Shown: piece after piece, positions 32,852-45,016 of the stretch
Layout: each line of letters starts with the position of its first letter
How positions within the stretch are numbered: position 1 is the stretch's first letter
Source: Neisseria sp.
Lineage (GTDB): Bacteria; Pseudomonadota; Gammaproteobacteria; Burkholderiales; Neisseriaceae
Direction of reading: 5' to 3'
Length of the DNA: 64,000 nucleotides
Assembly: GCF_030530745.1 (NCBI RefSeq)
Contig: NZ_JAUMUI010000004.1
Span: forward strand, 24,159-88,158
The notes under the pieces: generated by a model
Databases searched by the model: none
What the model was told of the DNA's origin: nothing
Seen by the model: only the letters and a program-made list of their open reading frames with translations
Position numbers and translations under genes: made by a program

Positions 32852-34189
32852 TCAAAACAGCAGCATGCCCACTTTGCGTATTTTCTCTTCGTCATTCAAT
32901 ACCCCCGCGTTTTGCAGCAGCTGCAGGTAGGATTGGATATAGGTGTATTTGGCCTCGGCGAGTTTTTGCTCTGCGTCGGCTTTTTCCTGTTGTGCCTGAG
33001 TTTCTTCAAGGTTGTTGCGCACGCCGACCTGACGCCCCAGCCGTGTGGCTTCCAGTTTGGCGCGGTTGGTTTCGAGCAGGCGCTGCTGGGCGAGCGTTTG
33101 GATTTTGCTGCTGCGGGTGGTTTGATAGGCCTGCCTTACCGCCAGCCGCACTTTGCGCTCCGTTGCGGTGAGCAGGTCTTTATTCTGCATTTCGCGCGAA
33201 GCGGCCTCGCGGATCTGGCTGGAGATTTTGCCGCCGCTGAAAAGCGGCATACTGAGCTGGAAGTTTACCGTACCGCCTTTGCTGCGGTAGGTTTGATCGA
33301 AGCTTTCACCGAAATAATCCTGGCTGCGGTGGGTATTGCGGTCGTCCTGATAGCCGCCGCTTACGGTGAGCGTGGGCATACGGCTGCCTTTGGCGGCTTT
33401 GAACGCCTGTTTTGCATCTTCGAGGGTTTTGCGCTGCAGCTGCCATTCGGGATTGTGCCGCTCGGCCAGCGCCTGCCATTCCCGTTCTTCCGATTCGCCG
33501 AGCAGGTCGGCCAGCGCCTTATCGTTTTTTACCGGGCTGATTTGCTGCGGATCCAGCCCGGTCAGGTTGGCCAGCGTGTTTTCGGCCACCTGAAGCTGGG
33601 TGAGCGCGTCGATTTCTTTGGCAAGGGCCGCATCGTAGCCGGATTTGGCCTCGTGGGTGTCCAGAATTGTTGCCGCCCCCTGCCGGAACATTTCCTGCGC
33701 CCGCTCGAGCTGCCGGGAATAAGCGGCTTTTTCGTCGGCGATGGCGGCCAGCTTGTCTTTATTCAGCAGAATATCGAAATAGGCCTTGGCCACGTTTATT
33801 TTCAATTCGTCTTCACTGCCGCTCAGGCGCGCATCGGCCATTTCGGCGGCGATTTTTCCCTGTTTGTATTGGGCGAAGCGGGTTCTGTCGAACAAAACCT
33901 GCGAAGCCTGCACGTTCCAGCCGCGGCTTTTCGTGTTGGAAGAGAGCGAATAGGGCTGGCGCTGGTAGGTGGCGTTGGCATTAACCTGCGGCAGCAGCTC
34001 CGCACGCGCCTGGTTCTTTTTTTCCGATTCCGCATCACGCTCGTGTTTGGCAGCAGAAAAATCGGCCGAATAGTTCACAGCGGCCCGCCATGCGTCCAGC
34101 AGATTGAAGGCGTGGGAAGCGGCGGGCAGCGCGAGCATGCACGAAGAAAACAGCAGGGGCAGTGTTTTAAATTTGGCCATGGCAGACAA
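32852..34189 (-). CDS. tolC: TolC-family outer-membrane channel (type I secretion / efflux)
   Basis: Signal peptide ending AASHA, two OEP repeats, coiled-coil Q/L/A-rich segments. Confidence 0.8.
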   Translation of the reverse strand: MSAMAKFKTLPLLFSSCMLALPAASHAFNLLDAWRAAVNYSADFSAAKHERDAESEKKNQARAELLPQVNANATYQRQPYSLSSNTKSRGWNVQASQVLFDRTRFAQYKQGKIAAEMADARLSGSEDELKINVAKAYFDILLNKDKLAAIADEKAAYSRQLERAQEMFRQGAATILDTHEAKSGYDAALAKEIDALTQLQVAENTLANLTGLDPQQISPVKNDKALADLLGESEEREWQALAERHNPEWQLQRKTLEDAKQAFKAAKGSRMPTLTVSGGYQDDRNTHRSQDYFGESFDQTYRSKGGTVNFQLSMPLFSGGKISSQIREAASREMQNKDLLTATERKVRLAVRQAYQTTRSSKIQTLAQQRLLETNRAKLEATRLGRQVGVRNNLEETQAQQEKADAEQKLAEAKYTYIQSYLQLLQNAGVLNDEEKIRKVGMLLF

Positions 34190-34585
34190 TGATAATGAAA
34201 TATTAACCTGACTTAGAGTGTTTTCGGGCCGGATAGTTTAATTTTTTTGAAATTTACCCTGTATGGATATTCGAAAAGTATATTGCAGGCCGCAAGATAA
34301 TTTTCAATATATTTTTTCAGGAAACTGTTTTTGGAAAAACGGTTTACATTCACATAGGGTTACCCGAATGTTTTAGAGGCGGGCATGCCGTGTTTTTCGG
34401 AAAACCTCCTTTTTATTCTTACGGATAACGGTAAATAACTTATTTTATTATCATATAGATTAATTGATTGGATTTTTCGGGAACCAAACAAAACCTAACG
34501 AACAAAACGGCGGGCGGAGTTGTCGTAAAACCACGGAGCCCGGCAACGGGTTTCCGGGTTTTTATTAATTTTCAAGGAGACTGTA

Positions 34586-34759
34586 ATGAAACAACTCAAC
34601 CAGCATGAGATGCAGCAGGTGGCCGGCGGCTACAGATGGAGCGATTTCCGCAAAGACTGGAAAGACTTCTGGAAAGAAATGGGCGGCGGTTTCTCCAAGG
34701 CCGGCGACAACCTCGGCGACGCATGGAAAAACGCCCGCGATGCGGTTCGTAACAATTAA
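34586..34759 (+). CDS. Double-glycine-leader peptide (class II microcin-like) MKQLNQHEMQQVAGG|YRWSDFRKDWKDFWKEMGGGFSKAGDNLGDAWKNARDAVRNN
   Basis: 15-aa leader matching the GG-leader consensus (L..E...V.GG); RBS aaggag 7 nt upstream; core 42 aa, Trp/Lys-rich. Confidence 0.7.
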   Translation: MKQLNQHEMQQVAGGYRWSDFRKDWKDFWKEMGGGFSKAGDNLGDAWKNARDAVRNN

Positions 34760-34906
34760 GCGGTATTTGGAATTTCGGAGTAGGCGGATTCTGAACCGAA
34801 CGGTTGGTTTCTGCTTTCCGAATCGGGAGGTATCCGTCCTTCCTTAACCGTGTAGCAGCGAAAATTATTGCTGTTTTTAATTTTAACCTTAAAAAGGAGA
34901 TTTGAT

Positions 34907-35158
34907 ATGCAGGCTGTAGTTTTGCAAAACAGTTTCGGCCGTGAACTGGCTGTGAATGAGTTGATAATGGTTGCCGGCGGAGGGTGTAATTGGAAAGATT
35001 TTGGTAAAGCTACCGTGGGAGGTGCTATTGCTACCGGAACAGCTGGTGCAATCGCAGGAGCCGCATTTGGTCCCGGTGCCCTTGCTGGTGGAGCCGTCGG
35101 TGCTGCTGGAGGTGCTGTAGGGGGAGCTCTTGCTTATGGGGCAACATGCGGATGGTGA
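34907..35158 (+). CDS. GG-leader glycine-rich microcin precursor (...ELAVNELIMVAGG|GCNWKDFGKATVGG...GATCGW)
   Basis: RBS aaaaaggag; Gly/Ala-rich core with two Cys (possible disulfide), resembling colicin V/microcin L-type cores. Confidence 0.7.
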   Translation: MQAVVLQNSFGRELAVNELIMVAGGGCNWKDFGKATVGGAIATGTAGAIAGAAFGPGALAGGAVGAAGGAVGGALAYGATCGW

Positions 35159-35245
35159 TTTAGTTATTTATCAGTAAGTATCCGGATGCGGTTTCCTGCA
35201 CAGCAGGAAGCCGTATCTTTCCAGTATTTTCACGAGGTTAGAACC

Positions 35246-35419
35246 ATGAAAAAGTCCGTTATGAGAAAGACAGTTCGTTACGCTTTTTTTTTCTCGGCCT
35301 CAGCATTGATCTTGTATCTTCTCGGAAACGGTTTATTGCAGACGTTAATTACATGTGCGGTTGCTACTTTTATATTTGCTTTTGTAATGGAAAGATTTAT
35401 TGAGAAAAGAGAGCTTTAG
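35246..35419 (+). CDS. Small two-TM membrane protein (candidate microcin immunity protein)
   Basis: MKKSVMRKTVRYAFFFSASALILYLLGNGLLQTLITCAVATFIFAFVMERF; RBS gaggtt. Confidence 0.45.
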   Translation: MKKSVMRKTVRYAFFFSASALILYLLGNGLLQTLITCAVATFIFAFVMERFIEKREL

Positions 35420-35495
35420 TAAAGCACGCGTTGTCTGAAGTTCCTGATATTGCGTGCGAGGCTCTGCAGGCACTGTCTATAGAGATGGGAAAGTT

Positions 35496-35708
35496 ATGAC
35501 TAAAACCATTCTCTCGGTATGCATGTATCTTTTTATTGCTTTTACCGTAGCAACGCCGTTGGCTTGGCTTTATGAGTCTTTTACCGACGGGTTTGCATGG
35601 AAAAGCACGGTAGGTTTTTCGGTATCGTTTTTGGTGTTTCTCGGATTCAGCCTGTTTTCATACTGGTTTACCTATCATTATCTTAAGTTTGAAAGGAGTA
35701 AATCATGA
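35496..35708 (+). CDS. Small two-TM membrane protein (candidate immunity protein), translationally coupled to the next peptide gene
   Basis: MTKTILSVCMYLFIAFTVATPLAWLY...; stop TGA overlaps the ATG at 35705. Confidence 0.45.
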   Translation: MTKTILSVCMYLFIAFTVATPLAWLYESFTDGFAWKSTVGFSVSFLVFLGFSLFSYWFTYHYLKFERSKS

Positions 35709-35854
35709 AAGAATTGGATATTTATGAAGCAAAGAAAGTTACGGGCGGCCGACGGTTGGTTCCGTTTCCTCCTCCTCCTCCGGATTTTCGGACGCGTATA
35801 GCGGCCTATTACATCGGTCGGATTGCAGGTAAAGCCCTTAAAGCCCTTAAATAA
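35705..35854 (+). CDS. GG-leader peptide MKELDIYEAKKVTGG|RRLVPFPPPPPDFRTRIAAYYIGRIAGKALKALK
   Basis: Leader consensus; cationic core with a poly-Pro segment. Confidence 0.6.
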   Translation: MKELDIYEAKKVTGGRRLVPFPPPPPDFRTRIAAYYIGRIAGKALKALK

Positions 35855-35954
35855 CCCTGTCGGTGCATACCTGTATTTACTATTGCCATCCGGCCGGATT
35901 TGTATGGATATGAATTCAAGGCCGTCTGAACTTTTTTAATTTTGGAGGATTGTT

Positions 35955-36173
35955 ATGAAACATCTGAATCAATATGAGTTGGAACAGGTATCAGGAGGGT
36001 ACTTAACAGACTACGGTAGAAAGTACGTTAGAGAGATTGCTATACGGGCAGCTGTCTGGCGTACTACAAGGGCTCTGAACTGGTTGGCGAAGAAACGCGC
36101 ATCCAAAATTTACGACTGTAATGAAGCAAGCGTAGGGTGTGCCTCGGGCACGCACGCGCCGCATGAACCTTGA
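35955..36173 (+). CDS. GG-leader peptide MKHLNQYELEQVSGG|YLTDYGRKYVREIAIRAAVWRTTRALNWLAKKRASKIY... (C-terminal tail read through an inserted palindromic repeat)
   Basis: RBS ggagga; the last ~17 codons (NEASVGCASGTHAPHEP) lie within the repeat element that sits after the stop codon in other cassettes. Confidence 0.6.
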   Translation: MKHLNQYELEQVSGGYLTDYGRKYVREIAIRAAVWRTTRALNWLAKKRASKIYDCNEASVGCASGTHAPHEP

Positions 36174-36215
36174 TGCCGCGTGCGCGGCTCTGCTGCCGTC
36201 CCCTACGTTTGCTTT
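36117..36215. repeat. Palindromic repeat family 'gtagggtgtgcggc...cgggcacgcacgc...gaaccttga...cgcgtgcgcggctttgccgcacaccctgcg' (copy a)
   Basis: Nested inverted repeats; family has >=6 copies within 3.7 kb. Confidence 0.55.
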
Positions 36216-36247
36216 CCAACCGAAATTTACCTAAAGGAGTATGCAGT

Positions 36248-36349
36248 ATGAGAGAAATCAGTATTAAAGACCTCAAACAGATTTCCGGCGGTTTTGCCCC
36301 AAGGAAATCATGGCTTGACAGATTGACGGAAAGAGTAGTGCTTTGGTAG
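36248..36349 (+). CDS. GG-leader peptide MREISIKDLKQISGG|FAPRKSWLDRLTERVVLW
   Basis: Leader consensus; 18-aa core. Confidence 0.5.
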   Translation: MREISIKDLKQISGGFAPRKSWLDRLTERVVLW

Positions 36350-36354
36350 GAGGA

Positions 36355-36477
36355 ATGATGCGAAAATTGAATTTGCATGAAATGAAACAGGTTTCCGGCG
36401 GCCTTGTCGGCGGGCCGGTTGCAGAAGTAAAACGGAAGGTAAGCAGAGCAGTACGCAAGCTGTGGCCTTGGGATTAG
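36355..36477 (+). CDS. GG-leader peptide MMRKLNLHEMKQVSGG|LVGGPVAEVKRKVSRAVRKLWPWD
   Basis: RBS taggagga; leader consensus. Confidence 0.55.
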   Translation: MMRKLNLHEMKQVSGGLVGGPVAEVKRKVSRAVRKLWPWD

Positions 36478-36575
36478 TTGTCTGAACCTTCAATACCGCG
36501 CCGCGTGTGCGGCTTTGCGCACACCCTGCGAAAACGGTTTTCAGACGGCCTTGTTTTACAGTTAAGGAGAAGGTG

Positions 36576-36764
36576 ATGAAAGAATTGAAAAAATCCGAAG
36601 CGTGTTATGTGTCCGGCGGCGGTGTGGTGTTTTTCCGCGATACGGCCGGCAGGGTGGTCGGCGAGCCGAGCCGGCAGGACGTGCTGAAGGGAAAGGTGAG
36701 GCTTTCCACACCCAGCGGCGGCAGCAATATCACTACTTTGGCATTTAAGCATTCGCGGTATTGA
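36576..36764 (+). CDS. GG-leader peptide MKELKKSEACYVSGG|GVVFFRDTAGRVVGEPSRQDVLKGKVRLSTPSGGSNITTLAFKHSRY
   Basis: RBS aaggagaagg; leader consensus. Confidence 0.55.
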   Translation: MKELKKSEACYVSGGGVVFFRDTAGRVVGEPSRQDVLKGKVRLSTPSGGSNITTLAFKHSRY

Positions 36765-36791
36765 TGGTTTATTTTGAAAGGATTAGGAATC

Positions 36792-36929
36792 ATGAAAGAG
36801 CTGAATAGAAACGAGATTGAAAACGTATCAGGCGGTAATATTTTCGACTGGTTGTTTGGCAAAAAGAAGCCCAAAAGCGGATTTGATGGGGGAGGTGGGT
36901 TTGGCGGCGGCGGCGGCGGTTCTTGGTAA
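36792..36929 (+). CDS. GG-leader peptide MKELNRNEIENVSGG|NIFDWLFGKKKPKSGFDGGGGFGGGGGGSW
   Basis: Leader consensus; Gly-rich C-terminal tail. Confidence 0.6.
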   Translation: MKELNRNEIENVSGGNIFDWLFGKKKPKSGFDGGGGFGGGGGGSW

Positions 36930-37026
36930 AAGACACACAGAGGCGCCGACCAAACCGAAAGCAGACAAAAGCATAAGCTGTATTTATTCTCTTCGGATCT
37001 GCCGGCTTTAAGTTTGGAGGATTATT

Positions 37027-37188
37027 ATGAAACATCTGAATCAATATGAATTGGAACAAGTATCGGGAGGGGCAACTGTAGGCTCTGCATTAAAAGTAGC
37101 GGTTGAGGCTGCTGTGAGGGCTATCAGAGACGCACAAAGGCGAAGGCCACGCATCCCCACTCTCCCCGTTCATCGGTGGAAGCGCTAA
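37027..37188 (+). CDS. GG-leader peptide MKHLNQYELEQVSGG|ATVGSALKVAVEAAVRAIRDAQRRRPRIPTLPVHRWKR
   Basis: RBS ggagga; leader identical to the 35955 gene, different core (cassette shuffling). Confidence 0.6.
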   Translation: MKHLNQYELEQVSGGATVGSALKVAVEAAVRAIRDAQRRRPRIPTLPVHRWKR

Positions 37189-37189
37189 G

Positions 37190-37270
37190 TAAGCGCAGGG
37201 TGTGCCCCCGGCACGCACGCCGTCCGAACCTTGATACCGCGTGCGCGGCTTCGCCGCACACTCTGCCGAT
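37190..37270. repeat. Palindromic repeat family copy (c)
   Basis: taagcgcagggtgtgcccccggcacgcacgccgtccgaaccttgataccgcgtgcgcggcttcgccgcacactctgcc. Confidence 0.5.
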
Positions 37271-37304
37271 TGTTCTTATATTCTTTAACCTTAAAGATTT
37301 CATC

Positions 37305-37427
37305 ATGAAAGAATTGAAAAACAAAGAGTTTCATCAGGTAGGAGGCAGCTTCAGGATTCCTGCCGTGCCTTTGCCCCGACTGCCTTGGCTGCCTAACCGG
37401 TTACCGTGGCCGCCGATACGTGCTTAG
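37305..37427 (+). CDS. GG-leader Pro/Trp-rich peptide MKELKNKEFHQVGG|SFRIPAVPLPRLPWLPNRLPWPPIRA
   Basis: Leader consensus; core 26 aa with 9 Pro, 2 Trp and 4 Arg. Confidence 0.55.
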   Translation: MKELKNKEFHQVGGSFRIPAVPLPRLPWLPNRLPWPPIRA

Positions 37428-37606
37428 CCGAAACTTCAAGACATGCTTACATCCGAAACGGCGGAAAGATTGGAAACGGAAAGTTCCGACGATCGGGTGT
37501 CGGGTTTATGCGCGGGCGGCCGGCTTTTGATGAATGGCTGTCGAAGTGGCAATAACGGAGGATTTCCCTCCACAGAGTATATTTTTATTTTATAGGAGTA
37601 TTTGTT

Positions 37607-37750
37607 ATGAAAAAATTGGATCAGCATGAATTGAACCAGGTAGCAGGCGGACTTGTAGGCTGGCATCCCGGATGGAAAGAGATAAACAGGAGAAGATTGG
37701 AGCATTATCTTAAGCATGGCAAATTTCCGCCGCATATGCCTCTCTTCTGA
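37607..37750 (+). CDS. GG-leader peptide MKKLDQHELNQVAGG|LVGWHPGWKEINRRRLEHYLKHGKFPPHMPLF
   Basis: RBS taggag; leader consensus. Confidence 0.55.
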   Translation: MKKLDQHELNQVAGGLVGWHPGWKEINRRRLEHYLKHGKFPPHMPLF

Positions 37751-37835
37751 GCGTCCGGTAACCAGTTGGTTTTGCCTGAAGCCGCAGGGTTTCAAACCAT
37801 CACAGTTTTTTGTTTTTATACGAAAGGATTAGATC

Positions 37836-38006
37836 ATGAAAGAGCTGTACGAAAAAGAGCTCCGGCAGGTAGCCGGAGGCGCCGCATCTTCAAACTCTTG
37901 GCCTTGGCCGTGGCTGCCTCTATTGCCGGCATTGCCGAAGATACCGCTGCCGCGGTTCCCGGGGCGTACCCTTCCCGAGCCGCCCCGGGGAGCAGATTTA
38001 AAATAA
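37836..38006 (+). CDS. GG-leader Pro/Trp-rich peptide MKELYEKELRQVAGG|AASSNSWPWPWLPLLPALPKIPLPRFPGRTLPEPPRGADLK
   Basis: RBS aaaggatt; WPWPW motif. Confidence 0.5.
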   Translation: MKELYEKELRQVAGGAASSNSWPWPWLPLLPALPKIPLPRFPGRTLPEPPRGADLK

Positions 38007-38300
38007 ACAACTGTAGGGTGTGCGGCTTTGCTGCCTACGTTATCGGAGGCCGTCTGAAAAGTTTTTCAGACGGCCTTGTTTTTAATTTATGGTAATTAAA
38101 AGATATATGAAAATATCAAGTCGCATGTATTAAAACATATACATACCCTTATGGGGTAGATAAAATTTAATTATTCTTTTCAAAAAATAAACCGGTTTGC
38201 CGGAACAAAGTTTGGGTTATGCTTGTCAAACATAACGAGAACGCCTGATAAAGGCCGTTTCTCTTTTCTTTTAACTTTTCATTTTTAAGAGGTATGATTT

Positions 38301-38465
38301 ATGAAAGAACTGAATCAGTTTGAATTGGAAAAAGTTTCTGGTGGTTTTCTTCCGGCGTTGGCCGCTATACCGATCGGTTGGAAAATTTTTGGTGCTTCAG
38401 CTGCTGTCGGTGTTACGGCAGGAACCGCAGTAGGTCTTAATCGTGTCAACCGAGAAAAGAAATAA
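38301..38465 (+). CDS. GG-leader peptide MKELNQFELEKVSGG|FLPALAAIPIGWKIFGASAAVGVTAGTAVGLNRVNREKK
   Basis: RBS aagagg; hydrophobic Gly/Ala-rich core (membrane-active type). Confidence 0.65.
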   Translation: MKELNQFELEKVSGGFLPALAAIPIGWKIFGASAAVGVTAGTAVGLNRVNREKK

Positions 38466-38514
38466 CTTATTTTTAATTAATTAATGAAAAGTATGTAACT
38501 TATAAGGACTGGTT

Positions 38515-38607
38515 ATGAGCGACAAAACTATTATGCTTATTGTATCCATATCTATGATAATAGGATTGTTGGTTGGAACCTTTGTAGGGTTGCATAGCCT
38601 CAAATAA
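38515..38607 (+). CDS. 30-aa single-TM peptide MSDKTIMLIVSISMIIGLLVGTFVGLHSLK (candidate immunity peptide)
   Basis: Homologous to the 31-aa peptide at 39343..39438; sits immediately after a microcin gene. Confidence 0.45.
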   Translation: MSDKTIMLIVSISMIIGLLVGTFVGLHSLK

Positions 38608-38644
38608 ATGATCTATCTTAAATTTAAAGAAAGGATGCTGTATT

Positions 38645-38815
38645 ATGCAAATGAAGCATGTTCAGACTTTGGGTAATGTTCGTGAATTGGAAATGCATGA
38701 ATTAGAAAGTATTTCTGGTGGCTTCCCGCCTGCACTTATAGCAGCAGGGTATGTTGCTGCTGGTTTTGGTACTGGTTTTGGCGTTTCTTACGGTCTTGCC
38801 CGCTGGCTTGGTTAA
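38645..38815 (+). CDS. GG-leader peptide (26-aa leader ...RELEMHELESISGG|FPPALIAAGYVAAGFGTGFGVSYGLARWLG)
   Basis: RBS aaaggatg; hydrophobic Gly-rich core. Confidence 0.6.
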   Translation: MQMKHVQTLGNVRELEMHELESISGGFPPALIAAGYVAAGFGTGFGVSYGLARWLG

Positions 38816-38945
38816 GCGAGCAAGCGTAGGGTGTGCGGCCTCGGGCACGCACGCATTATTTCGAACCTTGAACTGCGTGCGCGGCTTTGCCGCACACCCT
38901 GCGTTATCAGAAGCCGTCTGAAAAGTTTTTCAGACGGCTTTTTTA
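38816..38945. repeat. Palindromic repeat family copy (e) plus inverted DUS pair
   Basis: gcaagcgtagggtgtgcggcctcgggcacgcacgc...gaaccttgaactgcgtgcgcggctttgccgcacaccctgcg...gccgtctgaaaagtttttcagacggc. Confidence 0.55.
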
Positions 38946-39164
38946 ATTTTTGGTAATTAAAAATCATATGAAAACATCAAGTCACATGTATTAAAACATA
39001 TACATACCCTTACAGGGTGGATAAAAGTTGATTATTCTTTTCAAAAAAAAATTAAACTTATTTTAGAAACTAAATTTATTCTGTTCTGTCAATAATAGCG
39101 AGAACGCCTGATAAAGGCTGTTTCTCTTTTCTTGTAAATTTTTATTTTTTAAGAGGTATGATTT

Positions 39165-39320
39165 ATGAAAGAACTGAATCAGTTTGAATTGGAACAGATT
39201 TCCGGCGGCATCGCGCCCGCTATTATCGTTGGCTACCTTGCTTTGGGAGGTGTCGGCTTTACAGGCGGCATAGCCACGGGAGTGAACCGTAAAAATCGGG
39301 GGGATAAATCGGCTCTCTGA
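39165..39320 (+). CDS. GG-leader peptide MKELNQFELEQISGG|IAPAIIVGYLALGGVGFTGGIATGVNRKNRGDKSAL
   Basis: Leader and ~200-bp upstream region near-identical to the 38301 cassette; core diverged. Confidence 0.65.
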   Translation: MKELNQFELEQISGGIAPAIIVGYLALGGVGFTGGIATGVNRKNRGDKSAL

Positions 39321-39342
39321 TTAATTTTAAGGTAATACTATT

Positions 39343-39438
39343 ATGAATACCAATACTGCTATTATAATAGGATTAATGTTTTTATTTGCGGTAGGGTTTC
39401 TTGCCGGAATTTTTGTAGGTCTGAACAGGCTTAATTAA
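39343..39438 (+). CDS. 31-aa single-TM peptide MNTNTAIIIGLMFLFAVGFLAGIFVGLNRLN (candidate immunity peptide)
   Basis: Paralog of 38515..38607. Confidence 0.45.
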   Translation: MNTNTAIIIGLMFLFAVGFLAGIFVGLNRLN

Positions 39439-39456
39439 ATCCAAGGAGGATTATTT

Positions 39457-39648
39457 ATGAACAATATGACACATTTTGTTGATGCACGTGAGCTGGAATT
39501 GCACGATTTGGAAAATATTGCCGGAGGCATTGCCTTTGTCCCCGCCTTGATTGCCGGTGCCAAAGTGGCCGGAGGCGCAGTTGCTGCCGGAGCAGCATTG
39601 TATGGCGGCTTCAAACTTGGTGACTATCTTGGTTACAAGCATGGTTAA
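39457..39648 (+). CDS. GG-leader peptide (...ARELELHDLENIAGG|IAFVPALIAGAKVAGGAVAAGAALYGGFKLGDYLGYKHG)
   Basis: RBS aaggagga; Gly/Ala-rich hydrophobic core. Confidence 0.65.
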   Translation: MNNMTHFVDARELELHDLENIAGGIAFVPALIAGAKVAGGAVAAGAALYGGFKLGDYLGYKHG

Positions 39649-39654
39649 TTAAGC

Positions 39655-39780
39655 AGGCGTAGGGTGTGTGCCCTCGGGCATACACGCGTTGTTTTGAACC
39701 TTGTTAATACCGCGTGCGCGGCTTTGCCGCACACCCTGCGTTATCGGAGGCCGTCTGAAAAATTTTTCAGACGGCCTTGC
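39655..39780. repeat. Palindromic repeat family copy (f) plus inverted DUS pair
   Basis: agcaggcgtagggtgtgtgccctcgggcatacacgcg...gaaccttgttaataccgcgtgcgcggctttgccgcacaccctgcg...ggccgtctgaaaaatttttcagacggcc. Confidence 0.55.
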
Positions 39781-39974
39781 TTATATCTGCTTCTCCGGCA
39801 GGCGGTTTGTGCCGAATGAAATATTTTTATACGGTATAGTTTTTGATGTTGATTTCCCGTTTTTCATATGCCGTTTTCTTATTTAAAAATTAATTGAACC
39901 AATGCCCGTTTTTTCGGTCTGAACCTTGTTCGGTTTTGCAGGTTTTCGATTATCAGGATTTTTGGGTATTGCAA

Positions 39975-41267
39975 ATGGCTGGAAACGACAGTTTTTTCCG
40001 CCCGGAAATTTTCGAGGCGAAGAAGAATAAATGGACGGGGCATGTGGTGTTGTCGCGGCCGTTTTCTTTTGTGTTTTTAACGGGCTGTGCGGCGGCGGGG
40101 GCGTTTGCGCTGATTGTGTTCGCCTTTTTCGGCAGCTATACGCGCAAAACCACGGTGGAGGGGCAGCTGCTGCCGGTGTCGGGCCTGGTGCGGGTGTATG
40201 CGCCGGATACGGGCACGGTTACGGCCAAAAGGGTGAACGACGGCGATTATGTGGAGCAGGGCGACGAGCTTTTAACGATTTCTATGCCGCGCTACAGCGG
40301 CGGCGGCGATGTGCGTGCGAAACTGGTTAAAGAGGCGGAGATGAAAAAAGACATGCTGCTGCGCGAAATCGAGCGGCAGAAAAAAGTGCAGAAGGGCGAA
40401 GAGCGCTCGCTCACCGATACGGTGGGCAGGCTGCAGAACCAGCTTGCCGATGTGCGCAGCCAGATCAAGGGGCAGGGCAGACGGGTGGAGCTGGCGGCAC
40501 AGATTATCGAAAAATACCGCCCGCTGCTGAAAAAGGGGTTTATTTCAGAGCAGCAGATGATGGAGTATGAAAACGAGCATCTGAACCAGGTTTCGCAGTT
40601 GGACGCGCTCAAGCGGGAAGAGGCGGGCGTGCTGCGCGAGCTGAACACGCAGAAGCAGACGCTGGCCGACCTGCCCGACAAGCAGGAAACCGAATTGAGC
40701 CAGCTTAACCGCACGGTGTCGGAGCTGAAGCAGGAAGGGTTGAATTTGGATTTGCAGCAGGAGCAGACGGTGCACGCGAGCAAATCGGGCTATGTGAGCA
40801 CTTCTAATGTGGAAGTGGGGCAGCAGGTCAGCCCTTCGCAGCTGCTGCTGAGCATCGTGCCGGGCAAAACCGAGCTGGTGGCGAACTTATATGTGCCCAG
40901 CCGGGCGGCGGGCTTTGTGAAGCCTGAAGATAAAGTGGTGCTGCGCTATCAGGCTTACCCCTATCAGAAATTCGGCCATGCAGAGGGCAGGATTCTTTCG
41001 ATTGCGAAAACGGCCTTGGGCAAGCAGGAGCTGGCAAGCCTGGGCAGCGGCTCGGCCGAGGGCGCAGAAAACCAGATGATACAGGCGCAGGCCAACGAGC
41101 CTGTGTATCTGGTGAGGGTGAAGCTGGACAAGCAGACGATTAAGGTATACGGCGAAGAAAAACCGCTGCAAATCGGCATGGTGGCCGAGGCCGATATTCT
41201 GCACGAGCGCAAAAAGCTTTATGAATGGGTGCTCGACCCGCTTTACAGCATTACAGGCAAGCTTTGA
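39975..41267 (+). CDS. cvaA: HlyD-family membrane fusion protein, CvaA-like (microcin/bacteriocin type I secretion)
   Basis: N-terminus FFRPEIFEAKKNKWTGHVVLSRP parallels CvaA (FRQDALENRKMKWQGRAILLP); single TM, long coiled-coil, C-terminal beta domain. Confidence 0.8.
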   Translation: MAGNDSFFRPEIFEAKKNKWTGHVVLSRPFSFVFLTGCAAAGAFALIVFAFFGSYTRKTTVEGQLLPVSGLVRVYAPDTGTVTAKRVNDGDYVEQGDELLTISMPRYSGGGDVRAKLVKEAEMKKDMLLREIERQKKVQKGEERSLTDTVGRLQNQLADVRSQIKGQGRRVELAAQIIEKYRPLLKKGFISEQQMMEYENEHLNQVSQLDALKREEAGVLRELNTQKQTLADLPDKQETELSQLNRTVSELKQEGLNLDLQQEQTVHASKSGYVSTSNVEVGQQVSPSQLLLSIVPGKTELVANLYVPSRAAGFVKPEDKVVLRYQAYPYQKFGHAEGRILSIAKTALGKQELASLGSGSAEGAENQMIQAQANEPVYLVRVKLDKQTIKVYGEEKPLQIGMVAEADILHERKKLYEWVLDPLYSITGKL

Positions 41268-41765: not shown

Positions 41766-43880
41766 ATGAATTATTTGGAACGCCTCTCTTTCGGGTTCGG
41801 CAAAAAGCTGCCCGTAGTATTGCAAACCGAGGTGGCCGAATGCGGTTTGGCCTGCCTGACTGCGGTTGCGGGCTATCACGGTTATCATTCCGATTTGCGC
41901 ACGATGAGGCAGAAATATTCGCTCTCGCAAAAAGGGCTGACGCTGGCCGATATTGTGCGCTTTGCCAATGATTTGAACCTGACTTCGCGCGCGCTGCGGC
42001 TGGATCTGGACGACCTGCCCAACCTGCGCGCGCCCTGTATCCTGCACTGGGATCTGAACCATTTCGTGGTGCTCAAAGAGGTGGTTAAAGACGGCATCAT
42101 GATTATGGATCCCGCCGTGGGAATGCGCAAAATCAGGCAGGAAGAGGTGTCGCAGAAGTTTACCGGCATTGCGCTGGAATTGTGGCCGAACACGCATTTT
42201 GAAAAAAAAGAAGAAAAGAAAAAAGTTAAAATCCTCACGCTGCTCAAAGGCGTTACCGGCGTTAAGCGTTCGTTGGCGCAGGTGCTGCTGCTGGCATTTG
42301 CGCTGGAAATTTTCGGCCTGGTCAGCCCGTTTCTGATGCAGTGGGTTATCGACCATGTGATTGTGTCGGCAGACCGAAACCTTCTGCTGACGCTGGTTTT
42401 GGGCTTCGGCCTGCTGAAAATACTGGAGCAGCTTACCGGCCTTTTGCAGGCGTGGGTAAACATGCACCTGACCACCACGCTGAATGTGCAGTGGAAAGCC
42501 AACATATTCAAAAGGCTGCTCGAGCTGCCCGCCGATTACTTTTCCAAACGCCATCTGGGCGATGTGATTTCGCGCTTCGGGGCCATCGACAATATTCAGG
42601 AAACCTTAACCTCCACCGCCTTTAAAACCATTTTAAGCGGCATTATGGCCGTGTTTACGCTGGTGCTGATGTTTTATTACAGCTGGCTGTTAACGGTGGT
42701 GGTATTGGTTGCGCTGGCTTTGTATGTCATTATCCGCATCGTTGCCTATTATCCGCTGCGCAACGCCACCGAAGAAAACATTGTGCACGATGCCAAGCAA
42801 GACACCTATTTTATGGAAACGGTGCGCGGAATCCACACGGTCAAGCTGTTTGAAAAAAACGAGCAGCGGCACAGCTCGTGGATGACCTTGTTTGTCGATA
42901 CGGTGAATACCGATTTGACCAAACAGAAGCTCACCAATATTTTCGACTTTGCCAACAAACTCCTGTTCGGCATAGAAGGCATATTGATTATCTATCTGGG
43001 CGCCGACAAGATTCTTGCGGGCGGTTTCACCGTGGGCGCGCTCACGGCATTTTGGGCGTATAAAAACCAGTTTGAAGAACGAGTGGGCGAGCTGGTCGAC
43101 CAATACATCAAAATCCGCATGCTGGGTCTGCACGCCGAGCGTCTGGCCGACATCGTGCTCACCGAAACCGAAACGGAAAAAACCAAAGAAATTTATGTTC
43201 CCGAGGTTGAGGGGGACATCGATATTGCGGTGGAAGACGTATCGTTCCGCTATTCCGACACCGAGCCGTATATTCTGAAAAACATCAGCCTGCATATCAG
43301 GCAGGGCGAATCGGTGGCGTTTACCGGCAGCTCGGGCTGCGGCAAAACCACGCTGATGAACATCTTAATCGGCAACCTTGCGCCCGAATCGGGCAAAGTG
43401 CTGGTAAACGGGCACGACATCCACAAACTTTCACCGCGCTTTATCCGCGGGTTGAGCGGCACGGTAACGCAGGATGATGTGTTGTTTGCCGGCTCGATAG
43501 CGGAAAACATCTGCTTTTTCGACGAAACGCCCGACCAGCAGAAGATTATGCAGTGCGCGGCGATGGCGCAGATACACGAAGACATCATGCAGATGACCAT
43601 GGGCTACGAAACCCTGATAGGCGACATGGGCAACGCCCTGTCGGGCGGACAGAAGCAGCGGATTATTCTGGCGCGCGCGCTTTACCGCGAGCCGAAGATA
43701 CTGTTTCTCGACGAGGCGACAAGCCATTTGGATATGGAAAACGAGCGGGCGATCAACGAAAACCTGAAGCGGTTGAACATTACCAAAATCATGGTTGCGC
43801 ACCGCAGGGAAACGATTGAGTCGGCCGACAGGGTGGTGGATATGGAGGCGCTGGCGCACAGGGAGGAGCAGGAAGGGTAG
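41766..43880 (+). CDS. cvaB: Peptidase-C39-domain ABC transporter, CvaB-like (leader-cleaving microcin exporter) copy 1
   Basis: LQTEVAECGLACL (catalytic Cys), PCILHWDLNHFVVL (His), 6 TM, Walker A GSSGCGKTT, signature LSGGQKQR, Walker B ILFLDEATS; high similarity to E. coli CvaB throughout. Confidence 0.85.
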   Translation: MNYLERLSFGFGKKLPVVLQTEVAECGLACLTAVAGYHGYHSDLRTMRQKYSLSQKGLTLADIVRFANDLNLTSRALRLDLDDLPNLRAPCILHWDLNHFVVLKEVVKDGIMIMDPAVGMRKIRQEEVSQKFTGIALELWPNTHFEKKEEKKKVKILTLLKGVTGVKRSLAQVLLLAFALEIFGLVSPFLMQWVIDHVIVSADRNLLLTLVLGFGLLKILEQLTGLLQAWVNMHLTTTLNVQWKANIFKRLLELPADYFSKRHLGDVISRFGAIDNIQETLTSTAFKTILSGIMAVFTLVLMFYYSWLLTVVVLVALALYVIIRIVAYYPLRNATEENIVHDAKQDTYFMETVRGIHTVKLFEKNEQRHSSWMTLFVDTVNTDLTKQKLTNIFDFANKLLFGIEGILIIYLGADKILAGGFTVGALTAFWAYKNQFEERVGELVDQYIKIRMLGLHAERLADIVLTETETEKTKEIYVPEVEGDIDIAVEDVSFRYSDTEPYILKNISLHIRQGESVAFTGSSGCGKTTLMNILIGNLAPESGKVLVNGHDIHKLSPRFIRGLSGTVTQDDVLFAGSIAENICFFDETPDQQKIMQCAAMAQIHEDIMQMTMGYETLIGDMGNALSGGQKQRIILARALYREPKILFLDEATSHLDMENERAINENLKRLNITKIMVAHRRETIESADRVVDMEALAHREEQEG

Positions 43881-44352: not shown

Positions 44353-44571
44353 ATGGAGGGTAAAAAGTTTGCAGGCTGCCGTAAAAATAAAATAACGGAA
44401 TGGGTAATTATTATATTGTTAATGATTTTTTGCGGTTTATTTTCAAGATTTTATTTAAAAGAATTGGTTTCGGATGAAAATTATAAGACAGCAAGTTTCG
44501 GATTACTTGTTATTTGTTTTCTGATTTTTTATCCGTTGTTATGTAAAATTTTCATAAAGAAAGGAAAGTAA
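44353..44571 (+). CDS. 72-aa two-TM membrane protein (candidate immunity protein)
   Basis: Hydrophobic segments VIIILLMIFCGLF and FGLLVICFLIFYPLL; immediately upstream of the microcin gene at 44574. Confidence 0.4.
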   Translation: MEGKKFAGCRKNKITEWVIIILLMIFCGLFSRFYLKELVSDENYKTASFGLLVICFLIFYPLLCKIFIKKGK

Positions 44572-44573
44572 TT

Positions 44574-44927
44574 ATGTTTGAATTGGAAATCCGCGATCTG
44601 GAAGTTGTATCAGGAGGAGGTTGGCCTATTTTGGGAGCCATAGCTGCAGGAGCAGCTAGAGTTGCAAGTACTTCTGCTGCTAGGAATGCAGCTATAGGAG
44701 CAGGTACATATACTGGCTATTCTTATTTAAGCGGTAATGAAATTACGGCTGCAGGAGTTGCAGGAGCTATGGTTGGCGGTTCAGTAGGAGGTGCAATTAA
44801 AAATACAACAGGAGCCGCTATAGCAGGATCGGCTACAGCCGGAGCAACAGAGGGATTGGTTAACGGTAACAGCCCCCTGCTTAATAGGGATAAAAATGAT
44901 TATGATGCAGGGGGTGGCGAGTATTAA
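44574..44927 (+). CDS. GG-leader Gly/Ala-rich microcin precursor MFELEIRDLEVVSGG|GWPILGAIAAGAARVAS... (102-aa core)
   Basis: RBS aaaggaaagtaatt; leader consensus; colicin V/microcin-type Gly-rich core. Confidence 0.65.
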   Translation: MFELEIRDLEVVSGGGWPILGAIAAGAARVASTSAARNAAIGAGTYTGYSYLSGNEITAAGVAGAMVGGSVGGAIKNTTGAAIAGSATAGATEGLVNGNSPLLNRDKNDYDAGGGEY

Positions 44928-45016
44928 GTTTGAAAATCGAAAACTTTGTTAAATATATTGTTTTATGCCGTCTGAAAACTTCAGACGGCATTTTTCAGAT
45001 ATATTCCAGAATGTTT

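Follow-up and report, generated by a model that had tools for sequence, protein, structure and literature searches.

We analyzed a 64,000-nucleotide stretch of Neisseria sp. DNA (contig NZ_JAUMUI010000004.1, positions 24,159 to 88,158 of the forward strand), referred to below as the window; all coordinates are positions within this stretch. The DNA uptake sequence (DUS) GCCGTCTGAA occurs 80 times in its 64 kb, which identifies the window as neisserial. Our subject is a cassette of approximately 860 bp that lies in the window in two tandem copies, c1 (38040-38900) and c2 (38900-39780). Each copy holds three small genes, which we call A, T and B in that order. A and B encode peptides with double-glycine leaders, while T encodes a leaderless membrane peptide for which we propose a role in immunity. 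The features of the two cassettes are listed here, REP denoting repetitive extragenic palindrome and GC the fraction of G+C.

38046-38077, forward strand: DUS inverted-repeat hairpin with a T-run, which ends the preceding peptide gene and forms the 5' boundary of cassette 1 (terminator scan, 14-bp stem; repeats I1-I3)
38079-38300, forward strand: upstream module 1, GC 0.28, with the ribosome-binding site AGAGG; conserved block I at 38079-38184, variable centre at 38185-38223, conserved block II at 38224-38300 (pairwise alignment)
38301-38465, forward strand: A1, 54-residue precursor of a Sth1-like class IIb bacteriocin; leader MKELNQFELEKVSGG at 38301-38345, mature core of 39 residues
38515-38607, forward strand: T1, 30 residues, leaderless single-pass membrane peptide and proposed cognate immunity factor; C-terminal glycine zipper G-L-L-V-G-T-F-V-G-L, hydropathy 2.6
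38645-38815, forward strand: B1, 56-residue Sth2-like second peptide (WP_303099077.1); leader ending ...HELESISGG, core of 30 residues
38824-38902, unstranded: REP-like inverted repeat (GTAGGGTGTGCGGC ... GCCGCACACCCTGC), the conserved 3' flank of cassette 1
38909-38942, forward strand: DUS inverted-repeat terminator between cassettes 1 and 2 (15-bp stem)
38940-39164, forward strand: upstream module 2, GC 0.24; palindrome at 38986-39005, inverted repeat at 39100-39126
39165-39320, forward strand: A2, 51-residue precursor of a Sth1-like class IIb bacteriocin; leader MKELNQFELEQISGG
39343-39438, forward strand: T2, 31 residues, leaderless membrane peptide
39457-39648, forward strand: B2, 63 residues, double-glycine leader (...LENIAGG), diverged beta-type partner
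39657-39739, unstranded: REP-like inverted repeat, the 3' flank of cassette 2
39747-39778, forward strand: DUS inverted-repeat terminator closing cassette 2 (terminator scan)

Each cassette thus reads, from 5' to 3', as an AT-rich module, A, T, B, a REP-like inverted repeat and a DUS-hairpin terminator. To compare the two copies, 38020-38900 was aligned with 38880-39790. Similarity between the upstream modules spanned their full length (38079-38300 against 38940-39164) at 81% identity overall, reaching 88-94% in two blocks (38090-38165 and 38237-38310) around a divergent centre of about 40 nt. The original prediction, made from the sequence of this region, had described near-identical modules of about 200 bp. 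The duplication stood, but "near-identical" was an overstatement and the repeat is in fact the whole cassette. The strings quoted there as shared between the modules each have exactly two occurrences in the window and none in shuffles (CATGTATTAAAACATATACATACCC at 38124 and 38985; GAGAACGCCTGATAAAGGC at 38237 and 39100). The leaders of A1 and A2, rightly called almost identical, differ at two of 15 residues and are 87% identical at the nucleotide level, with the initial 30 nt being the same. Identity was 30-60% across the three coding cores and their spacers, and 74-82% from the last codons of B through the REP-like inverted repeat and the DUS terminator. What had been taken for a two-peptide arrangement contains a third gene, B, which had been overlooked in both copies. 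The REP-like repeat also occurs at 36124-36197, 37187-37257 and 38013-38039; within the window it is confined to the bacteriocin island described below, where it always directly follows a peptide gene and precedes a DUS-hairpin terminator, and it may be a 3' recombination flank or an RNA-stabilizing element.

We next assigned the A and B peptides to a family. Using the NCBIfam model TIGR03949 (class IIb bacteriocin, lactobin A/cerein 7B family), for which the curated cut-off is 21.5 bits, A1, A2 and B1 scored 33.1, 39.1 and 23.8 bits, respectively. A1 and A2 also exceeded the cut-off of the TIGR01847 bacteriocin_sig domain, while matches to Pfam Bacteriocin_IIc were sub-threshold. The leader MKELNQFELEKVSGG has the length (15-30 residues) and the hydrophobic residues expected of the double-glycine type, with V at -4, L at -7 and L at -12, and the B leaders end in ...ELESISGG and ...LENIAGG. 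Both A (GVTAGTAVG, GFTGGIATG) and B (GFGTGFG, GGAVAAG) carry GxxxG-type motifs and lie together within one terminator-bounded unit, as in class IIb operons, for which the interposed T is atypical. The A cores, previously considered unrelated, were found to be diverged homologues (z 7.3; 48% identical in alignment A5). Moreover, the A1 and A2 cores resemble that of the streptococcal peptide Sth1 (z 13 and 9.4, respectively) and the B1 core that of Sth2 (z 5.2), while B2 groups with B1 and Sth2 in alignment A7. NCBI names A1, A2 and B1 "class IIb bacteriocin" in the "Neisseria sp." assembly and B2 "hypothetical protein". The earlier view of the peptides as bacteriocin-type, with double-glycine leaders and next to a C39-ABC/HlyD/TolC exporter, was therefore borne out: the peptides belong to a known family, class IIb and Sth-like, and the type of island that carries them is also known.

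Homology between the 30- and 31-residue T open reading frames (ORFs), proposed in the original prediction, was supported by a Smith-Waterman z of 5.2. For comparison with other genomes we used loci on other contigs (L001-L047), obtained by protein look-ups and contig retrieval. T1 of the window and T1 of L002 differed at a proportion of synonymous sites (pS) of 0.50 and of nonsynonymous sites (pN) of 0.07; between types, over the C-terminal 16 codons, the values were 0.6-1.0 and 0.2-0.3. T was located between A and B in 8/8 complete cassette versions from Neisseria and Streptococcus (listed as window c1 and c2, L002, L003-5, L008, L029-type S. gordonii, L042, L044 and L047). Its members share a short ORF (30-39 residues), the lack of a leader, one hydrophobic span, a C-terminal glycine zipper and a signature of purifying selection (alignment A6; pS >> pN). 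They are also far more hydrophobic than their neighbours, with a best 19-residue Kyte-Doolittle mean of 2.6-3.0 versus 1.4-2.1 for A and B, and have no double-glycine leader.

To find further members, a degenerate back-translation of the T C-terminus (G-[FL]-[LF]-x-G-[IT]-x-[VA]-G-L-x-x-[LF]-x-stop) was searched against a metagenome collection. It gave 21 matches, all 21 of which were ORFs of 35-39 residues belonging to the T family. The same pattern had no match in 2.9 million viral contigs, and across viral contigs and plasmids neither it nor any Sth1-like sequence was detected, giving no sign of carriage by phages or plasmids. A T-family profile retrieved just three T clusters, and no known family, from 1.84 billion representative proteins, and neither Pfam nor NCBIfam contained a match to T. 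T1 and T2 were absent from a collection of 15 billion proteins, which implies that they have never been called as genes. Judged by its conservation, position and substitution pattern, T is nonetheless evidently a real gene.

The T family also linked the window to streptocin STH. The streptocin STH1/STH2 locus (sthA, sthB) was reportedly described by Heng, Tagg and Tompkins in 2007 (J Bacteriol 189:1468) in S. gordonii DL1/Challis, with inhibitory activity. Eleven of the 21 pattern matches fell in low-GC contigs between nanE and adhE, within a cassette consisting of A5 (…VEGG|VIPVAIWAIWGAATAAGFTGGIAVGLNRVNRK), T5 (38 residues) and B5 (…TAGG|IAPFLIGAGIVAGLGGGFFGGYALARIFG). By exact look-up, B5 is "class IIb bacteriocin STH2 [Streptococcus gordonii]" and T5 is "hypothetical protein [Streptococcus gordonii]", while a published Sth1 fragment, AGFTGGIAVGLNRVNRK (PMC5112981), equals the C-terminus of A5. 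The Sth identity rests on these NCBI names and that fragment. PMC10086258 lists streptocins STH1 and STH2 as class II bacteriocins of S. gordonii with inhibitory activity. As far as could be checked, the middle ORF of S. gordonii is unannotated or "hypothetical" and carries no assigned role.

The neisserial cassettes thus share with the Sth locus their A cores, the B1 core, double-glycine leaders, class IIb membership (TIGR03949) and the A-T-B order, including the 38-residue T homologue between sthA and sthB in the S. gordonii-type contigs. They differ in that the host is Gram-negative and export proceeds via a dedicated TolC/HlyD/C39-ABC island, not ComAB; the leaders are of Neisseria type (MKELNQFELE..GG); the upstream DNA is unrelated, with no com-type regulator seen in the island and no sign of competence control; and two diverged alleles of the cassette stand side by side in tandem. 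Intermediates between the two were also found. Neisseria-type leaders (MKELNQYELE..GG) precede Sth1-like cores sharing 77% identity with the streptococcal core (P0021, P0022), and L042, L044 and L045 have the A-T-B order inside TolC/HlyD/ABC islands, with L047 as a further version. At the S. gordonii-type nanE-adhE locus, an identical leader, MENMTTIENHYLTLTEDELMNVEGG, fronts either Sth1-T-Sth2 (L029, 1317-1793) or an unrelated alpha/beta pair (L038-L041, 3001-3543), the latter followed by a 62-residue immunity-like protein with two transmembrane (TM) spans. Since one leader thus precedes two different cargos, a conserved leader/promoter with swappable cargo appears to be a general pattern.

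We then asked how T relates to the peptides that flank it. T2 aligned with the A2 core over 26 residues, 13 of which were identical (z 10.2; tblastn E 4e-5). When all 1437 stop-to-stop ORF segments of the window were searched with a T-family hidden Markov model, the best non-self matches were A1 (E 2e-4) and A2. Profile-profile comparison with hhalign gave the A core and T a probability of 96% (E 4.6e-9, 25 columns), as opposed to 0.5% for the B core and T as a control. The segment common to A and T consists of a GxxxGxxxG glycine zipper followed by L-N-R-x-N, and T stops where the cationic tail of A starts. In a 9x9 matrix, T scored highest with the A of its own type. From these alignments, T is apparently a paralogue of the glycine-zipper helix of its own A, without the cationic tail.

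With regard to function, the distribution of T outside complete cassettes is informative. Orphan T genes without A or B were found as T1-like (L001/2), T3 (L003/4/6), T4 (L011-16 and L020) and T6 (L019 and L032) copies. In L011-16 and L020, T4 immediately precedes HlyD and is grouped with other small membrane proteins that lack a leader. T6 (MNKCSFLKELYEYRVSIAIGLATIIGFLAGIAVGLNSLN, 39 residues) lies between two sulfate-permease genes (cysU/cysW-like) on DUS-rich Neisseria contigs (L019, 2100-2219; L032, on the reverse strand, 1440-1559 when oriented); its cluster, on 733 contigs, makes it the commonest T member, and it is possibly a widespread orphan immunity gene. The L006 locus retains an intact T alongside an A that has lost its leader and a B that carries a frameshift. 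Nothing else in the window cassettes qualifies as an immunity candidate; an 85-residue multi-TM ORF located after B in L003-5 lacks a homologue in the window. There is also a precedent in gallocin A, the immunity peptide of which, GIP, is necessary and sufficient for immunity and is modelled as mimicking the mature bacteriocin peptides, leading to the proposal that immunity arises by competition or interference (PMC10100652). Based on the orphan copies, the retention of T in the decayed L006, the lack of another candidate and the GIP precedent, we propose that T is a membrane-retained decoy of the packing helix of A. The original prediction had already called these 30-residue peptides immunity peptides; this is plausible and is backed indirectly by the orphan copies and by purifying selection, with immunity itself being a deduction from sequence.

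The mechanism that we envisage is as follows. The 220-bp AT-rich module would drive A, T and B in each cassette. By analogy with their families, the adjacent C39-ABC exporter would cleave A and B after Gly-Gly, with exit via HlyD and TolC, and the two peptides would act jointly on the membrane of competitors. T, having no leader and being far more hydrophobic, would remain in the inner membrane of the producer, where it would most probably confer allele-specific immunity by mimicry, pairing with A or B or occupying their docking site so that no active A/B complex forms. New A-T-B alleles would be swapped in by homologous recombination between the 5' module plus the first 10 leader codons and the 3' REP/DUS flank, probably following DNA uptake. 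Overall, we consider it probable that the locus comprises two tandem, independently terminated three-gene class IIb cassettes, homologous to sthA-(small ORF)-sthB and carried by a commensal Neisseria, in which T acts as the cognate immunity factor by mimicry.

Several observations weigh against this reading. B2 scored 13.0 bits with TIGR03949, which is under the cut-off, and its core showed no significant similarity to Sth2 (z 1.6). At 30 residues, T is unusually small for an immunity factor, and its position between the structural genes departs from the canonical alpha-beta-immunity order. In L003-5, the 85-residue multi-TM ORF after B could be the immunity protein. Where T3 and T4 occur as orphans (L006, 4420-4787; L011, 3919-4228), the T gene overlaps the stop codon of a 74-89-residue two-TM ORF (…YFFIYPNFAKSLRHAAVSTLIFVPL…), so that T might act with a partner; a paralogue of this ORF lies directly after a double-glycine peptide in L012. 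This arrangement suggests that T3 and T4 are translationally coupled to a conventional immunity-type protein. Related double-glycine peptides of Neisseria (Nap) have no antibacterial activity (PMC11798529). As for the proposed control by the upstream module, consensus scans of the modules for sigma-70 promoters performed no better than on shuffles, and no site was conserved in all three module copies (c1, c2 and L002). A module 20-mer had no true copy among 185,579 species-representative genomes (one chance match in a metagenome-assembled genome of Deltaproteobacteria), and a module 25-mer gave no match in JGI metagenomes. Given this rarity, the regulatory role of the module rests on three or four copies.

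Because a hairpin terminator precedes each module, a separate promoter would be required for either cassette. Module 2 is 92% identical to the orthologous L002 module, and three inverted repeats are conserved in the module: 38079-38101, 38125-38144 (ATGTAT-N8-ATACAT) and 38237-38263 (GAGAACGCC...GGCCGTTTCTC, then a T-run). The last stem and its T-run are predicted in both module copies and are statistically not distinctive. An Rfam scan of 33500-41000 (E up to 1) found no family in the modules, RNA folding of the modules was unremarkable (z-scores of -0.2 to -1.7), and neither a regulator gene for the modules nor a sensor kinase was found in the island. A MarR-family regulator gene (48278-48745, reverse strand) is located 9 kb downstream, adjoining an RTX protein gene. 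The palindrome ATGTAT-N8-ATACAT had been proposed as the operator of a common regulator co-controlling both cassettes. It is real and present in both modules, but at 38125-38144 and 38986-39005 and not at 38136-38155 and 38988-39007 as first given. As an exact 6+6 inverted repeat it occurs nowhere else in the 64 kb; it sits within the best-conserved module block and is overlapped by the sole promoter-like match in c1 (TATACA-17-TAAAAT, 38138-38166). However, its duplication provides no independent evidence because the whole block is duplicated, the right arm is mutated to ATGCAT in the orthologous L002 module, and the promoter-like match is not conserved in c2 or L002. With the two further inverted repeats of the module being equally good operator candidates, no regulator gene identified, and the upstream DNA of other A-T-B cassettes unrelated, we regard the operator role as doubtful, albeit less so than the alternatives considered next.

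The first of these is that T is a third functional component, either a leaderless membrane-active peptide or an accessory or assembly factor for the folding, pairing or exporter delivery of A and B, with immunity provided elsewhere or by the exporter. Its place within the operon between the structural genes in every cassette would fit such a role, the helix-packing motif of A could equally serve co-assembly, and both the separate membrane ORF after B in L003-5 and the overlap of T3 and T4 with another small membrane-protein gene point in the same direction. A helper in the production of A and B would, however, be useless without them, and orphan T is under purifying selection where A and B are absent, including the copy in the sulfate-permease operon on 733 contigs. 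T likewise survives in L006 while A and B decay, and in the window cassettes no other gene is a candidate for immunity. An accessory role is thus unlikely, and T as the cognate immunity factor remains our preferred reading.

Comparison with related loci bore on how the two cassettes came to differ. A close relative, L001/L002, has HlyD and ABC genes 96% and 97% identical to those of the window at the nucleotide level. It contains the c2 cassette with the same upstream module; one additional double-glycine peptide and an orphan T1-like gene then separate the cassette from HlyD, and cassette content therefore varies among near relatives. L003-L005 represent a distant Neisseria, with HlyD 74% and ABC 78% identical to the window. 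In these loci the c2 cargo is 89-95% identical from the last 15 leader nt through B, while the 220 nt upstream are unrelated (51%) and the initial 30 nt of the leader only 73% identical. L008 and L009 have c1-type A-T-B cassettes behind other upstream DNA; by eye the L008 upstream region resembled module block I, but a MAFFT alignment was unconvincing and the similarity was discarded. Identity breaks abruptly about 30 nt into the leader when c1 is compared with c2 in the window, and again when c2 is compared with L003; the same leader junction (about nucleotide 30) has therefore been observed twice independently. L010, an 845-bp ENA contig, joins a c2-type module (97.9% over 239 nt) to c1 cargo, again with a junction at about nucleotide 30 of the leader; at 1.2x coverage it could be an unequal-crossover product or an assembly chimera across a 46-nt identical stretch, and it was not used as evidence of recombination.

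T1 and T2 differ at a pS of 0.57-0.70 (about 0.7 over the C-terminal 16 codons), which is near saturation, whereas the non-coding flanks diverge by 6-19%, and the cargo has a GC of 0.39-0.44 compared with 0.54 for the genome. Together, these values support recombinational exchange of the cargo over divergence in place. Such in-place divergence would entail a tandem duplication, purifying selection on module and leader and fast diversifying selection on the peptides, with no cassette exchange. Rapid evolution is indeed common among bacteriocin cores and immunity genes, the C39 peptidase constrains leaders just as a regulator constrains its promoters, and the related loci are few. This scenario nevertheless leaves unexplained why the flank spacer, AT-rich and unconstrained-looking, differs so little when T is near saturation, why identity shifts abruptly and not gradually within the leader, why the c2 cargo is so similar in a lineage with exporter genes 22-26% diverged and unrelated upstream DNA, and why c1-type and c2-type cargos both occur with other upstream regions. 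We consider it quite unlikely. The two cassettes thus seem to combine young flanks with anciently diverged cargo, and a conserved 5' module joined to divergent cargo is best explained by recombination. The proposal of modular diversification by recombination at conserved 5' modules therefore held in its essentials, on the strength of the conserved module with divergent cargo, the leader junction and the L003 cargo, but not its analogy to maf/cdi orphan arrays, since each cassette is a complete unit bounded by terminators.

Least likely of all is that the peptides are not antibacterial but act as secreted signals (pheromones), in autolysis or on the host, with T a membrane sensor or modulator: a pheromone role was raised by NeMeSys for meningococcal double-glycine peptides (PMC2784325), the gonococcal Nap peptides promote autolysis (PMC11798529) and, according to a 2022 review, no Neisseria bacteriocin had been characterized genetically and biochemically (PMC9263626), but the A and B cores have homologues in Sth1 and Sth2, inhibitory class II streptocins according to PMC10086258, share with membrane-active class IIb peptides a hydrophobic, Gly-rich make-up that sets them apart from the cationic Nap peptides, and are accompanied by no sensor kinase or regulator in the island.

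Among known systems, the gallocin A operon of Streptococcus gallolyticus (gllA2-gllA1-gip) is similar in pairing a two-peptide class IIb bacteriocin with a small immunity peptide (PMC10100652). It differs in that the mimicry between T and A is visible in sequence (hhalign 96%) and is allele-specific, and that T is a single helix of 30-39 residues and not a disulfide-stabilized hairpin; T lies between the structural genes, GIP after them, and the role of T is a proposed one. Meningococcal type I secretion units were noted in 2004-2009 as putative bacteriocins or pheromones (PMC2784325). These units (NMV_0104-0106, NMV_1948-1949; NMB0097/NMB0098 "meningocin" export) resemble the present island in having a C39-ABC, an HlyD-type adaptor and several small Gly-rich double-glycine peptides with a proposed role as bacteriocin or pheromone, but the reports contain no Sth-like A-T-B cassettes, T family or tandem cassette duplication (PMC2784325, PMC9263626).

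Class II microcins (MccV: cvaC/cvi/cvaAB plus TolC) likewise are unmodified peptides of <10 kDa with a double-glycine leader and C39-ABC/MFP/TolC export, MFP being the membrane-fusion protein, and have a small membrane immunity protein gene beside the toxin gene, for which T is the candidate here. In contrast to them, the present system is a two-peptide one of Gram-positive type with no recognizable TonB-receptor uptake domain, and T is about half the size of Cvi or MclI and homologous to the toxin. The maf/cdi orphan arrays are alike, loosely, in joining a conserved 5' segment to a variable toxin/immunity cargo, in recombination and in having orphan immunity genes. We rejected this classification: the toxins here are peptides of 51-63 residues, whereas those of maf/cdi form the C-terminal domains of large delivery proteins; what is conserved is promoter plus leader and not the main toxin gene body; and the cassettes are complete, with their own module, ribosome-binding site, ATG and terminators, unlike orphan cassettes, which have neither promoter nor start, match the 3' part of a large main toxin gene and replace its C-terminal domain by recombination. 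A functional analogy, and no more than that, is offered by holin and antiholin (lambda S105/S107), in which a near-copy of a membrane pore-former blocks lethal assembly by heteromeric helix-helix pairing. That system uses one gene with dual starts as a phage lysis timer, whereas here the inhibitor is encoded by a gene of its own and the toxin attacks other cells from outside. Finally, the nap island, in which the napP C39 peptidase and the napF FapF-like secretin flank the cationic NapABC (PMC11798529), was rejected as the same system, given that TolC, HlyD, full C39-ABC exporters and hydrophobic Gly-rich peptides are found here.

The cassettes form part of a type I secretion bacteriocin island that contains a peptide array and, by Pfam, all of the components for export of bacteriocins from Gram-negative bacteria, i.e., C39-ABC (two genes), HlyD_3 and OEP. 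Its main genes other than the peptides are the following.

32852-34189, reverse strand: TolC-like outer-membrane gene (Pfam OEP, 207 bits)
39894-41267, forward strand: HlyD-family membrane-fusion protein of the exporter, with the likely true start near 39966 (Pfam HlyD_3, HlyD_D23)
41766-43880, forward strand: ABC exporter with N-terminal C39 peptidase, expected to cleave double-glycine leaders and export A and B (Pfam Peptidase_C39, ABC_membrane, ABC_tran)
44930-47131: second C39-peptidase ABC exporter (Pfam Peptidase_C39, ABC_membrane, ABC_tran)

The two C39-ABC genes are mosaic, with the initial 1200 nt being 68-72% identical and the final 815 nt 99.8%, a pattern that suggests recent gene conversion. 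Between them lie a 72-residue membrane ORF (44353-44571) and a 117-residue Gly-rich protein with a double-glycine leader (44574-44927). Upstream of the cassettes, 34586-38006 contains about 12 further double-glycine-leader peptide genes with diverse cores (Pro/Trp-rich, Gly-rich or cationic); small membrane ORFs at 35186-35419 and 35454-35708 come after some of these peptides and look like immunity genes. The peptide beside TolC (34586-34759; …VAGG|YRWSDFRKDWKDFWKEMGGGFSKAGDNLGDAWKNARDAVRNN) is hydrophilic and charged. It is kept at the same place in distant islands in which the other peptides are different (L011, 2059-2232; L013, 2031-2204; L042, 3660-3833), does not resemble a membrane-active bacteriocin, and a function as a signal or regulatory peptide is conceivable. 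The only hit of the Rfam scan, a weak one to the c-di-GMP-I-UAU riboswitch aptamer at 34492-34567, ahead of the first peptide gene, was rejected as probably due to chance (24.3 bits versus a gathering threshold of 65.9, E 0.09). Just downstream of the island are a flavin reductase (47758-48267) and an FrpA/C-like RTX-repeat protein of 1841 residues (49025-54550, forward strand), another type I secretion substrate.

Taken together, three things are new here as far as sequence comparison reveals: the T family, which is homologous to the toxin core; the finding of a single A-T-B cargo in both Streptococcus and Neisseria, in each genus preceded by host-specific leader/promoter modules; and a putative recombination junction mapped inside the leader. 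As a tentative extension, which we hold to be possible but less than probable, T may exemplify an overlooked general route to immunity. In this route the glycine-zipper helix of a toxin would be duplicated, stripped of leader and cationic tail and kept in the membrane as an allele-specific decoy capping A, B or the docking site, and the resulting 450-bp cargo, with its toxin and antidote of shared ancestry, would have moved between Streptococcus and Neisseria in the mouth onto host-specific promoters and leaders. If the decoy reading is true, the common ancestry and co-diversification of toxin and antidote mean that new specificities can arise jointly and travel as one cargo.

The locus yields synthesizable candidates, namely two A/B pairs with their putative antidotes, which homology links to a streptococcal bacteriocin of experimentally established activity. 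As a short, mostly unannotated gene class, the T family offers a simple, testable model for immunity by toxin mimicry; if this model is true, orphan T genes would mark bacteria that are attacked by Sth-like peptides. Finally, the occurrence of the same cargo in a Gram-positive and a Gram-negative oral genus indicates that bacteriocin cargo may be re-pluggable across very different export systems, which would be useful for engineering secreted antimicrobials.

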